From: Wenzhouxiangellaceae bacterium
Lineage (GTDB): Bacteria; Pseudomonadota; Gammaproteobacteria; Xanthomonadales; Wenzhouxiangellaceae
Direction of reading: 5' to 3'
Length of the DNA stretch: 64,000 bases
NCBI GenBank assembly: GCA_032251355.1
Contig: JAVVDV010000002.1
Location: forward strand, 66,253-130,252
A program made the translations under genes and the position numbers. The notes beneath the pieces are model-generated. The model was not told the DNA's origin, did not search any database, and was given only the letters and a program-made list of their open reading frames with translations. Below, piece by piece: positions 12,224 to 16,501 of the stretch (positions are counted from its first letter, which is position 1; each line of letters begins with the position of its first letter).

Positions 12224-12862
12224 ATGTACGTCGCCGCATTTGCCGAAGCCGAGCCCGTGCCGCAGCAGGCTCGCCGCCGGATCGATCCGAAGCGCAGCCC
12301 CTTCATTGCCGGATTCGGTAGTGCGTCCTGGCAGCGATCGGCCGCACTGGTCCGCCAGCAGTATCAATTAAAGTTCGATGCCCATATCGAGCCCGATTAC
12401 CCGCGCTATCTCGGCCTGCGAAACGCCGATCACGCCCCACTGGCGGTGATTGGTGTCCGCAGCAGCGCCGAGCAGACCCTGTTCTGTCAGCGCTATCTGC
12501 AGACCGACCTGTTCGAGCGGCTCGCAGCGTGCAGCGGCGTTGACGTCCAGCCGGGCCAGGTGGTCGAGCTTGGCAATCTGGCGCTGACCCGGCGGCGCCT
12601 GCTGCGACCCTTGTTCGGCCATGCGCATCGCTGGACCCGGATGCGCCCGTTCCGATGGCTCGTGTTCTGCGCGACCCGCGAGGTTCGCCTGGCGCTCGCC
12701 GGTACAGGGGCGCAGCTGATCGAACTGGGGCCTGCGCGCCCTGAAAGCATCGGCACTGATCTGCCGCAATGGGGCCGCTACTTCACTCATGATCCGATCG
12801 TGATGGCCGCGCGCACCGATCAGTCGGCCGTGGCGCGTGCACCGATCCATCGCGTCGGATGA
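12224..12862 (+). CDS. Thermostable-hemolysin (delta-VPH, T_hemolysin) family protein, probable acyltransferase-like enzyme
   Basis: About 210 aa. Collinear by recall with the Vibrio delta-VPH family (..QYQLKFDAHIEPDYPRYLGL.., ..VVELGNLA.., ..WLVFCATREVR..L...G..LIELG.A). First gene of a stop/start-overlapping operon. Confidence 0.6.
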   Translation: MYVAAFAEAEPVPQQARRRIDPKRSPFIAGFGSASWQRSAALVRQQYQLKFDAHIEPDYPRYLGLRNADHAPLAVIGVRSSAEQTLFCQRYLQTDLFERLAACSGVDVQPGQVVELGNLALTRRRLLRPLFGHAHRWTRMRPFRWLVFCATREVRLALAGTGAQLIELGPARPESIGTDLPQWGRYFTHDPIVMAARTDQSAVARAPIHRVG

Positions 12863-15021
12863 GCCGCACTTGCCAATCATTGACCGGTGCATCATTGACC
12901 GGGCGCTGGCCGGAGCTGGATCAACGGACCATGCACTGGCGCAAGCGGTTCGGCGCGCTTGGTGCCCGCCGCATCGCGCTGGCACTGGACAACGGACTGG
13001 ATTGGCTGGCAGTGGATCTGGCTGCACGCGCCGAGCAATTGATCGTCGTTCCGATCGCACCGTTCTTCTCGGCTACCCAGCGCCTGCACGCGCTTGATTC
13101 GGCCGGTTGCGACCTGCTGCTCACAACCGCCGACCCGGACCCAGGCGAGCCTCACCGGGCAGCCGGCTTCCGCATGCTGGACGAGGCGCACCGAATCCGG
13201 ATCTGGCAGCGAGGACTGACGAACCCACCCGCGCTGCCGCCGGGCACATTCACGATTTCCTACACCTCCGGCACGACCGGCACGCCCAAGGGCGTGTGCC
13301 TGGCGGCCGATCTGCTGGAACAGGTCGCCGCATCACTCGCCGAGCGTACCGCCGCGCTCGGCATCGGCAAGCACCTGTGCCTGCTGCCGCTGGCGGTCCT
13401 GCTGGAAAATGTCGCCGGTGCCTGGGCCGCACTGCACAGCGGTGCGCGATTGATCCTGCCGCGGCTGGCCGAAACCGGGCTGGCCGGCAGTTCCGGGCTG
13501 GACCTGGCGTGCTTCGCCGCCTGCCTGCAACGCCACCAGCCACACAGCATCATCGTGCTGCCCGAGTTGCTCAAGGCACTGTGCCACTTGGTCGAGTCGA
13601 AGCAATTCGATCCGGAAGATCTGCGGCTGGTCGCGGTTGGCGGCGCTCGAACGCCGGCCACGCTGATCGAGTATGCGCGCGGCCTTGGCCTTCCGGTCTT
13701 CGAAGGGTACGGCATGACCGAAACCGGCTCGGTGGTGTGTCTCAACGCGCCCGCTGCCGACCGCATCGGCAGCGTCGGCCGGCCGCTGGCGCACCAGAGA
13801 CTGTCACGCGCCCGGGACGGCGAGCTGCGGGTCCACGGCCCGCGGTTTCTCGGCTATGTCGGCGATGCCGCCCAGTCCCCGGACGAGCCGTTTCGCACCG
13901 GCGATGCCGGTGATATCGATGGCGATGGCTTCGTCCATGTGCACGGTCGGGTGGGCAACGTGTATTCCACCTCCTGGGGACGCAACGTCGCGCCGGAGTG
14001 GATCGAAGCCGAGCTCAACGCGCAAGCGGAAATTACACAAAGCTTTGTACACGGCCGCGATCTGCCCGAAAATCTCGCCGTTCTGGTGCCCTCCGCAGCC
14101 GGCGAACACGCGCTGCAGGCCGCTGTCGAGCGCGTCAATCGCGACCTGCCGGACTACGCCCGAATCAGCCGATGGCGCGTGCGCGCCCGACCCTTCAGCA
14201 CCGACGACGGCACCGCGACGGCTAATGGCCGCCTGCGCCGCGGACAAATTCTCGCCCTGCACGCCGAGCATCTCGGTCTGCCCGATCCGGGCGATCGGTC
14301 GTGCCCGACGGCGAGCAGCAACGAACCACCTTCCATGCAAACAGCGAACCCATCGATGACCTTCTATCAGACACTCCAACACCAGACCGAAACGGCCCGC
14401 GCCGGGCTCCTCAGCCAGCCGGTCATCCAGCGCGCGCTGGCCGGTCGGATCGATCGCGCCACCTATCTGGCATTCCTGCACGAGGCCTACCACCACGTGC
14501 GTCACACCGTCCCGTTGCTGATGGCCTGCGGCGCCCGGCTGCCGGCCCGGCTGGAATGGCTGCGCACGGCCATGGCCGAATACATCGAAGAGGAAATCGG
14601 CCACCAGGAATGGATCCTGAATGACATTGGTGCCGCCGGCGGCGATCCGGACCGCAGCCGTAACGGGCATCCGTCGCTGGCCACCGAAACCATGGTCGCC
14701 TACGCCTACCACACCATCGACCGCGGCAATCCGGTCGGCTTTCTCGGCATGGTTCATGTGCTCGAAGGCACCAGCGTGGCACTGGCCGACAGCGCGGCGG
14801 ACATGATCGGCAAAACCCTGGGCCTTCCGCGCAAGGCGTTCAGCTACCTGATTTCGCACGGCAGCCTCGATCAGCAACACGTCAAGTTCTTCGAAGACCT
14901 GGTCAATCGCGTCGATGCGACTGAAGACCAAAGAGAAATACTGCGCTGCGCGAACAATTTCTACCGCCTGTACGGCGAAATCTTCGGCACGCTGGAGCAT
15001 GTTTCGGCGCGCGCGGCATGA
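12859..15021 (+). CDS. Fusion protein: AMP-dependent synthetase/ligase (adenylating enzyme) plus C-terminal heme-oxygenase-like (TenA/PqqC/CADD-type, putative di-iron) domain
   Basis: ATGA overlap with the upstream gene. Adenylation motifs TISYTSGTTGTPKGV, FEGYGMTETG, FRTGDAGDIDGDGFVHVHGRVGN. From about aa 493 (nt 14335) an all-helical domain carries ligand-like His/Glu motifs LHEAYHHVRH, AEYIEEEIGHQEW, MVHVLEGTS. There is no stop between the two halves. Confidence 0.75.
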   Translation: MSRTCQSLTGASLTGRWPELDQRTMHWRKRFGALGARRIALALDNGLDWLAVDLAARAEQLIVVPIAPFFSATQRLHALDSAGCDLLLTTADPDPGEPHRAAGFRMLDEAHRIRIWQRGLTNPPALPPGTFTISYTSGTTGTPKGVCLAADLLEQVAASLAERTAALGIGKHLCLLPLAVLLENVAGAWAALHSGARLILPRLAETGLAGSSGLDLACFAACLQRHQPHSIIVLPELLKALCHLVESKQFDPEDLRLVAVGGARTPATLIEYARGLGLPVFEGYGMTETGSVVCLNAPAADRIGSVGRPLAHQRLSRARDGELRVHGPRFLGYVGDAAQSPDEPFRTGDAGDIDGDGFVHVHGRVGNVYSTSWGRNVAPEWIEAELNAQAEITQSFVHGRDLPENLAVLVPSAAGEHALQAAVERVNRDLPDYARISRWRVRARPFSTDDGTATANGRLRRGQILALHAEHLGLPDPGDRSCPTASSNEPPSMQTANPSMTFYQTLQHQTETARAGLLSQPVIQRALAGRIDRATYLAFLHEAYHHVRHTVPLLMACGARLPARLEWLRTAMAEYIEEEIGHQEWILNDIGAAGGDPDRSRNGHPSLATETMVAYAYHTIDRGNPVGFLGMVHVLEGTSVALADSAADMIGKTLGLPRKAFSYLISHGSLDQQHVKFFEDLVNRVDATEDQREILRCANNFYRLYGEIFGTLEHVSARAA

Positions 15022-15851: not shown

Positions 15852-16501
15852 AACTTGCAACTCGACTGCCTCTGCTCGCCCTGATCCTGGCCTCGGCGAG
15901 CGTGTTCGGGGGCTCGGTGCCCGAACCGACCGACGCCAATGCGCTGGTCCGGATCCAGCAGCGCTGGGCGCAAATCAATTACCAGACTCCCGAGCAGGAT
16001 CGTCGCGATGCATTCGGCGAACTTGCCGCGCAGGTCGACCAGGCCGTGGCCGCAAATTCCGAGGATGCCGCGCTGCTGACCTGGCAGGGCATCGTCCATT
16101 CCACCTGGGCCGGAACCGGCGGCCTCAAGGCACTGGGGCGCGCCAAGGCCGCGCGCAAGGCGCTCGAACGCGCAATCGAGATCGACGAGACCGCACTCAG
16201 CGGCAGTGCGCATACCTCGCTGGGCGTGCTCTATCACGAGGTCCCGGGCTGGCCGATCGGCTTCGGCGACGACGAACGGGCGCGGCAACACCTCGAACGC
16301 GGGCTGGCGCTCAACCCCGACGGCATCGATTCGAATTATTTCCTCGGCAAATTCCTGCTTGACCAAAAGCACTTCGGCGAAGCCCGCGCGCGCCTTCAGC
16401 ATGCACTGCAGGCACCGGACCGGCCCGGGCGGCCGATTGCAGATCAAGGACGTCGTGCAGAAGTACGTGCAGCATTGGAAGGACTTGACGACCGACACTG
16501 A
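15848..16501 (+). CDS. Secreted TPR-like helical repeat protein (hypothetical)
   Basis: Signal peptide MKLATRLPLLALILASASVFG. Helical repeats resembling TPR (ARQHLERGLALNPDGIDSNYFLGKFLLDQKHFGEARARLQHAL). Last gene of the overlapping operon. Confidence 0.6.
   Translation: MKLATRLPLLALILASASVFGGSVPEPTDANALVRIQQRWAQINYQTPEQDRRDAFGELAAQVDQAVAANSEDAALLTWQGIVHSTWAGTGGLKALGRAKAARKALERAIEIDETALSGSAHTSLGVLYHEVPGWPIGFGDDERARQHLERGLALNPDGIDSNYFLGKFLLDQKHFGEARARLQHALQAPDRPGRPIADQGRRAEVRAALEGLDDRH

Follow-up and report, generated by a model that had tools for sequence, protein, structure and literature searches.

Locus organization and transcription

The region described here lies in a 64,000-nucleotide stretch of DNA, hereafter the window, from a Wenzhouxiangellaceae bacterium (GenBank assembly GCA_032251355.1, contig JAVVDV010000002.1, positions 66,253 to 130,252). 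All coordinates are positions within this window, and the cassette, the element before it and the two-component system genes lie on the + strand. The assembly to which the window belongs, referred to as its own genome, consists of 137 contigs and is 91% complete. Four co-directional open reading frames (ORFs) occupy positions 12224-12862, 12859-15021, 15018-15851 and 15848-16501. They encode a protein of the T_hemolysin family, a fusion of an adenylate-forming enzyme (adenylase) with a heme-oxygenase-like two-metal oxidase (HDO), a short-chain dehydrogenase/reductase (SDR), and a secreted tetratricopeptide repeat (TPR) protein, and are followed by the genes of a two-component system. The window copy is one member of a widespread orphan cassette. 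The original prediction, made from the sequence letters, had named these four ORFs as genes for T_hemolysin, AMP-binding plus HDO, SDR and signal-peptide TPR domains, and a Pfam search agrees with it.

The ATGA stop/start overlaps at 15018-15021 and 15848-15851 are seen directly in the sequence. An ATGA is also present at 12859-12862, and gene 2 begins there only if translation initiates at ATG 12859. The recorded gene 2 call (P0001, 696 aa) begins at ATG 12931. ATG 12859 is favoured, without being settled, because homologues reach further in the N-terminal direction. Of the three ATGA junctions claimed earlier, those at 15018 and 15848 thus stand, and that at 12859 hinges on the choice of the gene 2 start. 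The overlaps suggest that the cassette is tightly co-translated. No terminator-like site was found from 12100 to 18581. The kinase gene of the two-component system is directly followed by a tRNA-Ala(CGC) gene (18630-18705), and a strong terminator with a 12-bp stem at 18711-18737, 3' of the tRNA gene, is the first terminator-like site downstream of the operon. The four cassette genes and the regulator-kinase pair may therefore form one transcript. A sigma-70 promoter scan of the 124-nt gap upstream of the cassette gave no candidate.

The nearest metagenomic relatives of the locus are L092, about 80% identical, and L093-L095, which are 69% identical. The ratio of nonsynonymous to synonymous substitution rates (dN/dS), computed against L092, is 0.14-0.30 across all seven genes compared, which indicates that all of them are real and constrained.

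The T_hemolysin-family protein

Gene 1 (12224-12862) encodes a protein of 212 aa that matches Pfam family PF12261 at 2e-35 and 122.6 bits (cut-off 27), the lowest PF12261 score among the 18 such proteins in a class-wide sample, whose scores range from 123 to 200 bits. A signal peptide was not found in this protein. An AlphaFold (AF2) model built on 75 family sequences reached a mean predicted local distance difference test (pLDDT) of 88.7 and a predicted template modelling score (pTM) of 0.83. The top solved structures matched by this model in Foldseek are LasI (1.6e-7), TofI, EsaI, FeeM and the CoA-dependent enzymes MesI, RpaI and BjaI, with E-values of 1e-7 to 1e-4 and template modelling (TM) scores of 0.5-0.7. 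As the best fold matches are synthases of acyl-homoserine lactones (AHL) and FeeM, the protein is read from its model as a cytoplasmic GNAT-type acyltransferase of the LuxI/FeeM branch and not as a pore former. The earlier view of the 'thermostable hemolysin' family as one of acyltransferase-like proteins is upheld by these matches. The near-invariant family residue E115 and, of the family motif WGxYY...P, the residues W183, G184, Y186 and P191 are retained in the window protein.

The adenylase-HDO fusion protein

The first part of gene 2 (12859-14355, or from the alternative start ATG 12931) encodes an adenylate-forming domain of the ANL type, with Pfam matches to AMP-binding (2.7e-38) and AMP-binding_C_3. 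Its closest solved relatives are MenE (5buq, 7e-22) and FadD13, both at low similarity, and its matches to ligase families all lie far under the family cut-offs. The core motifs A3 (TSGTTGxPKG), A5 (GYGxSE) and A7 (TGD) are kept. Motif A8 (GRxK...G) reads GR(R/K)K in the family and is degenerate in the window, where it reads GRVGN...GRNV and the Lys is lost. The A10 position reads TANGRLRR (14224-14241, protein residues 454-461), with Arg for the catalytic Lys, as in 20 of 21 family members. The Arg is therefore a family trait and no lesion of the window copy.

The second part (14356-15021), from a relic start at Met500, encodes the HDO domain and matches PF14518 (Haem_oxygenas_2) at 1.3e-31 and 110.2 bits (cut-off 28.9). 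The ligand set E579xxH582, E636 and H667xxxD671xxH674 is invariant over 21 fused and 38 split or domain sequences, and a further pair, His545/His546 (HHVxH), is invariant on the preceding helix. The AF2 model of the domain has a pLDDT of 93.1, and its Foldseek matches are 3DDE (TM 0.86), CADD (0.83-0.87) and UndA (about 0.8). A sequence search found no characterised HDO. The heme-oxygenase-like domain with Glu and His ligand motifs named in the original prediction is thus recovered as a PF14518 match with an invariant set of three His and three carboxylates, and profile searches upheld both the T_hemolysin and the heme-oxygenase-like assignments.

In L092 the adenylase (79% identical) and the HDO (83%) are separate genes with an ATGA overlap between them. 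The window carries one additional base (within 14340-14370) right before the ATG, reading …CCATCGATGACC in the window and …AAATC-ATGACT in L092, and this base runs the adenylase frame into the HDO frame, leaving Met500 as a relic start. Two origins are conceivable for the window fusion, a genuine and simple fusion event or an assembly error of one base, and the protein parts are intact in both cases. A survey covered 80 loci from alpha-, beta-, gamma- and zetaproteobacteria; 46 of them have adenylase and HDO fused, and 34 have them as separate, adjacent genes. The fusion noted earlier is present in the window, and the correction to be made is that it is facultative. Triple fusions of T_hemolysin, adenylase and HDO also exist (P0019, P0058). 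These fusions are Rosetta-stone links among the three enzymes.

The SDR and the secreted TPR protein

Gene 3 (15018-15851) encodes a classical SDR of 277 aa that matches Pfam adh_short (3.2e-43). It also scores 262.5 bits against NCBIfam PRK09072, above the cut-off of 238, a family that has no functional name. The cofactor motif TGAGGGIG and the N-S-Y-K residues (in NLTG, GS and YCASK) can be read in its sequence. Gene 4 (15848-16501) encodes a secreted protein of 217 aa with TPR repeats in Pfam and a borderline TAtT match. It has a Sec-type signal peptide without a lipobox and contains no Cys, so the product is no lipoprotein. The best natural solved match of the TPR family profile is the sterol-binding protein BstC (7t1s, 3.6e-9). 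The TPR protein is a candidate periplasmic binder or chaperone of the product.

The two-component system and PmrA-type boxes

The gene at 16558-17217 encodes a response regulator of the OmpR family, within the PmrA/BasR-QseB group. It is followed at 17214-18581 by a gene for a QseC/PmrB-like sensor histidine kinase with two transmembrane helices, a periplasmic domain of about 125 aa, and HAMP, HisKA and HATPase domains. The regulator scores 228.6 bits against the NCBIfam model of PmrA (cut-off 330) and 224.5 against that of QseB (345). The kinase scores 175.7 bits against QseC (475) and 119 against PmrB (314). All four scores are under the equivalog level, and by these sequence scores the match to PmrA/PmrB holds at the family level only. 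The best solved relative of the regulator is BasR/PmrA of Klebsiella (4s04/8jo2, 2.5e-49), and the recognition helices are near-identical (ANAIEVHIHNLRRKLG in the regulator, TNTLEVHIHNLREKIG in BasR/PmrA). ExxE is the Fe3+-binding motif of PmrB. The window kinase has E37-A-G-E40, and the family of cassette-linked kinases has a moderately conserved E..ELFD after the first transmembrane helix, an ambiguous pattern that may instead be a general feature of 2CSK_N/QseC proteins.

The published PmrA box is CTTAAG-N5-xTTAAT (PMC3973317). The pattern TTAAK-N6-TTAAK was searched for over the 80 loci (1.28 Mb). Segments of about 510 nt upstream of the T_hemolysin gene held 70 of the 99 hits and make up 3% of the sequence. 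Boxes of the form CTTAAG-N5-CTTAAG, which agree with the published one, lie upstream of the cassette in 33 of the 43 loci with a linked response regulator versus 2 of the 31 without one, counts that come from phylogenetically related loci and so are no independent trials. In shuffled controls 0.21 loci had a box, versus 34 observed. The remaining boxes in these loci precede genes for EptA phosphoethanolamine transferases, DUF3413-sulfatase membrane proteins and ArnC-like GT2 glycosyltransferases.

No canonical PmrA box occurs in the window. A candidate regulator-binding element, TTTAAT-N5-ACTCAG-N5-CTTAAG, lies at 12149-12176, 48 nt upstream of gene 1, where the loci with a linked regulator mostly have the canonical form. 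It is a direct repeat resembling the PmrA box and consists of three hexamers in 11-bp phase. The three hexamers are conserved, with variable spacers, among the window, L092 and L093, and the element is unique in the window's own genome at up to three mismatches. By this motif evidence the cassette appears to be directly switched on by the neighbouring PmrA-type system. The earlier suggestion that the downstream two-component system regulates the cassette has thereby gained conserved PmrA-type boxes as evidence. Regulation by Fur was also considered and rejected, as Fur-box-like sites show no enrichment upstream of the cassette.

Distribution and co-inheritance

The adenylase-HDO protein gave 5827 scored hits, and at least 595 GTDB species carry it. 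The 80 loci come from Marinobacter, Halomonas, Stutzerimonas, Rheinheimera, Pseudoalteromonas, Vibrio and Polynucleobacter, as well as Gallionella, Mariprofundus, Sphingomonas, Caulobacter and others. Gene order varies little among them, running from T_hemolysin through adenylase/HDO and SDR to TPR, and they contain a T_hemolysin gene in 77 cases, adenylase/HDO in 80, SDR in 76 and TPR in 66. The four genes are thus co-conserved in the same order in four proteobacterial classes, which agrees with the original prediction. An even, class-wide sample of 251 genomes contained PF12261 in 18, and of the 17 tested, 15 have an intact HDO on the same strand, at a distance of 1.5-4 kb from the PF12261 gene. 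One genome of the sample (G071, C11:12858-13277) has only HDO fragments beside its T_hemolysin gene, possibly through decay, and in another (G272, C6:87718-88221) no HDO was detected with the T_hemolysin gene.

The cassette is accessory, being present in 2 of 22 genomes of the window's genus (the window's own and one of 21 others). Among 40 relatives, G010 and G034 alone have strong matches to the kinase (E 1e-59 or better), in both next to the cassette. A weaker match adjoins the cassette in G031, and G027 has a match of similar strength (3e-33) and no cassette. In G030 and G032 the cassette is present and a kinase of this kind is not. By these gene contents, the six genes appear largely to travel together among the relatives.

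Neighbouring genes

The genes immediately upstream in the window (9100-12099: VWA/YfbK, ECF sigma and anti-sigma factor genes) were considered as members of the system and rejected, as they are kept only in L092-L095 and are absent from the 80 wider loci. The longer stretch at 7723-12099 encodes a DUF3592 membrane protein, a VWA/YfbK protein, an extracytoplasmic function (ECF) sigma factor and a 222-aa protein without a family match; it is syntenic with the cassette in L092-L095 and likewise missing from the 80 wider loci.

In L093-L095 three genes lie between the cassette and the regulator-kinase pair (L093, 10945-13524). They encode an ArnC-like GT2 protein, an 88-aa LAB_N protein and an ArnT-like PMT_2 protein. 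In 11 loci (L019, 13748-15663, and 10 others) the cassette-linked kinase gene is followed without a gap by genes for a cupredoxin, an FTR1/EfeU-like iron permease and a conserved 241-aa protein that has no family match, a set that looks like Ftr-type iron uptake under the same two-component system.

The loci of Zetaproteobacteria and Thiothrix that lack the two-component system have exporters after the TPR gene. In one zetaproteobacterium (L026, 9502-12659) these are an RND transporter of the MMPL family, which contains a sterol-sensing domain, and a LolA-like protein, together resembling a lipid-export pair, and in L037 and L059 they are HlyD with an ABC or RND transporter. A S-adenosylmethionine (SAM) methyltransferase gene follows the TPR gene in 10 alphaproteobacterial loci. 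Genes for a FecI-type ECF sigma factor, FecR and a TonB-dependent receptor, divergent or downstream, were seen in L067 (2895-7031) and 14 further alphaproteobacterial loci.

Proposed function and alternatives

Tentatively, and at somewhat less than even confidence, the six genes are regarded here as a self-contained module that moves horizontally and produces an N-acyl amphiphile, exported for envelope remodelling under PmrA-type control. The product of the cassette is probably an exported, lipid-like molecule, with which the cell most likely remodels or protects its envelope when it faces metal or cationic stress. An envelope role is preferred over a signal or a chelator because of the PmrA-type regulon context. 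The computed ground of this proposal consists of domain identities, co-conservation, fusions, fold relationships, motif enrichment and co-inheritance. It is also favoured by the exporter or lipid-handling genes after the TPR gene in loci that lack the two-component system, by the GT2, LAB_N and ArnT-like genes of L093-L095, by the BstC match and by the purifying selection on all genes. The chemical steps are read from the folds, and they are given below in conditional form, together with the transcript structure, the binding of the regulator and the role of the TPR protein.

The kinase would sense a periplasmic cue; the cues of PmrB and QseC relatives are Fe3+/Al3+, acid or small molecules. 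The phosphorylated regulator would then bind the direct-repeat PmrA-type box before gene 1, as the motif suggests, and would drive one transcript that includes the regulator genes themselves, arranged as in pmrCAB (eptA-pmrA-pmrB). The adenylase domain would activate a carboxylic acid in the cytoplasm, probably to the acyl-CoA, since no carrier protein is encoded. The LuxI/FeeM-like T_hemolysin enzyme, judged by its fold, would move the acyl group onto an amine to give an N-acyl amide, an amphiphile resembling a lipoamino acid. The HDO, which is always adjacent to or fused with the adenylase, and the SDR would tailor the acyl chain or the head group by O2-dependent oxidation and keto/hydroxyl redox chemistry. 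In the periplasm the secreted TPR protein may take charge of this hydrophobic compound. On this view the 'thermostable hemolysin' phenotype described historically would belong to a heat-stable surfactant product rather than to the protein.

Several observations weigh against this proposal. A literature search found no characterised product linked to T_hemolysin, the adenylase-HDO pair or the SDR, with the limit that 'T_hemolysin' cannot be searched as a word. The fold matches of the T_hemolysin protein are moderate (TM 0.55-0.70, identity 11-16%), the Autoind_synth profile is absent among its Pfam matches, and neither phmmer nor the family profile found a solved relative of the family. At position 89 the window protein has Gln, where 74 of 75 family members have Glu (LFLExYL to LFCQRYL); this Gln is common to the window, L092 and L093 (residues 88-90, window 12486-12494). 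Arg110, likewise present in 74 of 75 members, is replaced by Pro. With Glu89 and Arg110 lost, the window copy may work differently, and the dN/dS of its gene is 0.24, in line with purifying selection despite Q89. The two-step chemistry of the adenylase is not assured, given the Arg at the A10 Lys position. Designed consensus TPRs outscore BstC for the TPR profile, so that the BstC match is weak evidence. On the regulatory side, the window's element is a non-canonical, three-hexamer variant of the PmrA box, and the locus counts for boxes overstate independence. The window's own genome, 91% complete, has no EptA homologue, so the envelope-regulon context is borrowed from other genomes. Finally, the two-component system is missing from the alphaproteobacterial loci, where FecI-FecR-TonB receptor genes adjoin the cassette instead (15 loci), a pattern that fits a secreted, re-imported ligand better than a membrane lipid.

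This last pattern touches on an autoinducer circuit, which we consider unlikely as the function of the locus. Here the T_hemolysin enzyme, supplied by the CoA ligase of the cassette, would act as a LuxI/FeeM-like synthase of a diffusible acyl amide. This signal would be detected by the secreted TPR protein together with the QseC-like kinase, and the regulator would feed back on the synthase operon in the manner of quorum sensing. The best fold matches of the T_hemolysin protein are indeed AHL synthases, including CoA-dependent ones paired with CoA ligases, and the kinase scores best against the QseC model. The regulator boxes precede an operon that encodes the regulator itself, which would give positive feedback, although autoregulated operons of effector, regulator and kinase are equally typical of stress systems of the pmrCAB type. 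Cassette and kinase are co-inherited and the box is unique in the window's own genome, so that sensor and synthase look mutually dedicated; on the other hand, many carriers of the cassette (Zetaproteobacteria, Gallionella, sphingomonads) have no linked kinase. The alphaproteobacteria swap the two-component system for FecI-FecR-TonB signalling, which senses extracellular ligands. Yet the other nearby boxes precede genes of lipid A and lipopolysaccharide modification, no LuxR gene is present, binding of the product by the kinase is an assumption, and known AHL synthesis needs neither an HDO nor an SDR. A broader form of the idea, which we hold to be less probable still, is that the PF12261 family consists of unrecognised acyl-amide signal synthases, and that cassette and kinase, or cassette and FecR-TonB receptor, are a new and widespread self-signalling circuit. 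If this were true, hundreds of proteobacterial species, iron oxidisers included, would have their genes for the envelope and for iron handling controlled by a product that the HDO has tailored.

The genes for iron handling near the cassette also bear on a role as a metallophore system, which is improbable to a similar degree. The product would be a small amphiphilic chelator, such as the N-acyl hydroxamate that would arise if an amine were N-oxygenated by the HDO and then acylated by the GNAT enzyme; it would be exported and sensed by an Fe3+-responsive, PmrB-like kinase or a FecR-TonB receptor. PmrB/BasS are Fe3+ sensors, but PmrA-type systems answer excess iron rather than scarcity, and Fur-box-like sequences are unenriched upstream of the cassette. 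FecI-FecR-TonB receptor genes flank it in the 15 alphaproteobacterial loci, the cupredoxin and FTR1/EfeU-like permease genes follow the kinase gene in 11 loci, and iron-oxidising Zetaproteobacteria and Gallionella are among the carriers; most loci, however, have no dedicated uptake system, and no non-ribosomal peptide synthetase (NRPS) or NRPS-independent siderophore synthetase is encoded. Some HDOs are N-oxygenases, and this subgroup is marked by an extra Glu ligand on an auxiliary-helix insertion (PMC7848743). The window HDO is compact, at 221 aa, and nearest to 3DDE, CADD and UndA, and an insertion with an extra Glu is not obvious in it.

Ordinary catabolism or fatty-acid recycling, with the ligase, dehydrogenase and accessory proteins salvaging an organic acid and the two-component system a mere neighbour, is very unlikely. 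Source annotations do say 'long-chain acyl-CoA synthetase', the adenylase is most similar to ligases of the MenE and FadD types, and SDRs are common in beta-oxidation-like routes. The ligase matches are nevertheless far under the family cut-offs, and thiolase, hydratase or transporter partners are missing. The cassette, which is patchy and co-inherited with the kinase, constantly includes a secreted TPR protein and a transferase of the LuxI/FeeM fold, and regulator boxes are specifically enriched before it. It can hardly be credited that gene 1 codes for a genuine pore-forming thermostable hemolysin that has no relation to the other genes. The name and description of PF12261 and the history of delta-VPH, reportedly cloned as a hemolytic determinant, speak for this reading. 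Against it, the product of gene 1 has no signal peptide, its model shows with confidence a globular enzyme of the GNAT fold with matches to acyltransferases, and the gene is almost always found within the enzyme cassette and is sometimes fused to the adenylase.

Significance

This analysis newly links the cassette to a regulator, places the 'hemolysin' by its structure, traces the fusion in the window to one base, and shows that residues at the catalytic site diverge in the window clade. Carried by at least 595 species, the cassette ranks among the more widely distributed orphan gene sets containing an HDO. The predicted PmrA-type regulator with a defined box offers an experimental handle to switch the cassette on. 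For the misnamed 'hemolysin' there is now a concrete enzymatic hypothesis, in which it performs LuxI/FeeM-like N-acyl transfer with a substrate supplied by the neighbouring ligase. Should the product be an envelope lipid, as favoured above, the module would be a new branch of PmrAB-type surface remodelling and would bear on tolerance to metals and cationic peptides; the scoring of 'thermostable hemolysin' genes as virulence markers in surveys of Vibrio and Aeromonas may have its explanation here as well. If the product is a signal or a chelator, it would represent a new class of either.

Comparison with known systems

The closest regulatory parallel is found in pmrCAB and the envelope operons of PmrA/BasR. 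In both cases effector, regulator and kinase genes are co-directional, with a direct-repeat box of the CTTAAG type upstream. The window regulator is nearest to BasR/PmrA, with a nearly identical recognition helix, and boxes in related loci precede eptA-, ArnC- and sulfatase-type genes. The effector of the window differs, being a four-gene cytoplasmic biosynthetic cassette plus a secreted TPR protein, with no lipid A transferase. Regulator and kinase also stay under the equivalog cut-offs of both PmrA/PmrB and QseB/QseC, and the periplasmic domain of the kinase is long and QseC-like. The window module is, moreover, accessory and mobile (2 of 22 genomes of the genus).

The AlmEFG system of Vibrio cholerae, which modifies lipid A with glycine under CarRS/VprAB, likewise combines an adenylate-forming enzyme and an acyltransferase under OmpR-family control with a change of the envelope. 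Unlike AlmEFG, the window encodes no carrier protein (AlmF in that system), its transferase is of the GNAT/LuxI and not of the LpxL type, and HDO, SDR and TPR proteins are additional.

The Bst sterol transport system of Methylococcus, composed of the RND protein BstA, BstB and BstC, resembles the cassette in that BstC is the best natural solved match of the TPR protein, and in that the TPR gene of L026 is followed by genes for an RND transporter of the MMPL/sterol-sensing type and a LolA-like protein. The similarity to BstC is at the generic TPR level, however, with 23.6 bits versus a cut-off of 350. Sterol genes are absent and most loci have no RND partner.

RpaI, BjaI, MesI and FeeM lie on the same branch of the GNAT fold as the T_hemolysin protein by structure search. 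The presence of a dedicated adenylate-forming ligase alongside, which could supply an acyl-CoA, is a further likeness to RpaI. The window protein differs from LuxI-type synthases and FeeM in its low identity (11-16%), in the lack of an Autoind_synth match and of a LuxR partner, in the HDO and SDR that accompany the cassette, and in that the SAM or amino-acid binding residues of these synthases are not identifiable in it.

The HDO domain shares the seven-helix heme-oxygenase-like core and the ligand pattern E-x2-H, E, H-x3-D-x2-H with Sden_3740 (3DDE, of no known function), CADD, UndA and BesC, and is only 25% identical to 3DDE. To our knowledge, every characterised enzyme of the HDO class has shown unusual chemistry. 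From these characterised enzymes the window HDO is set apart by being uniquely fused or adjacent to an ANL adenylase, and by the extra invariant His of its HHVxH motif.

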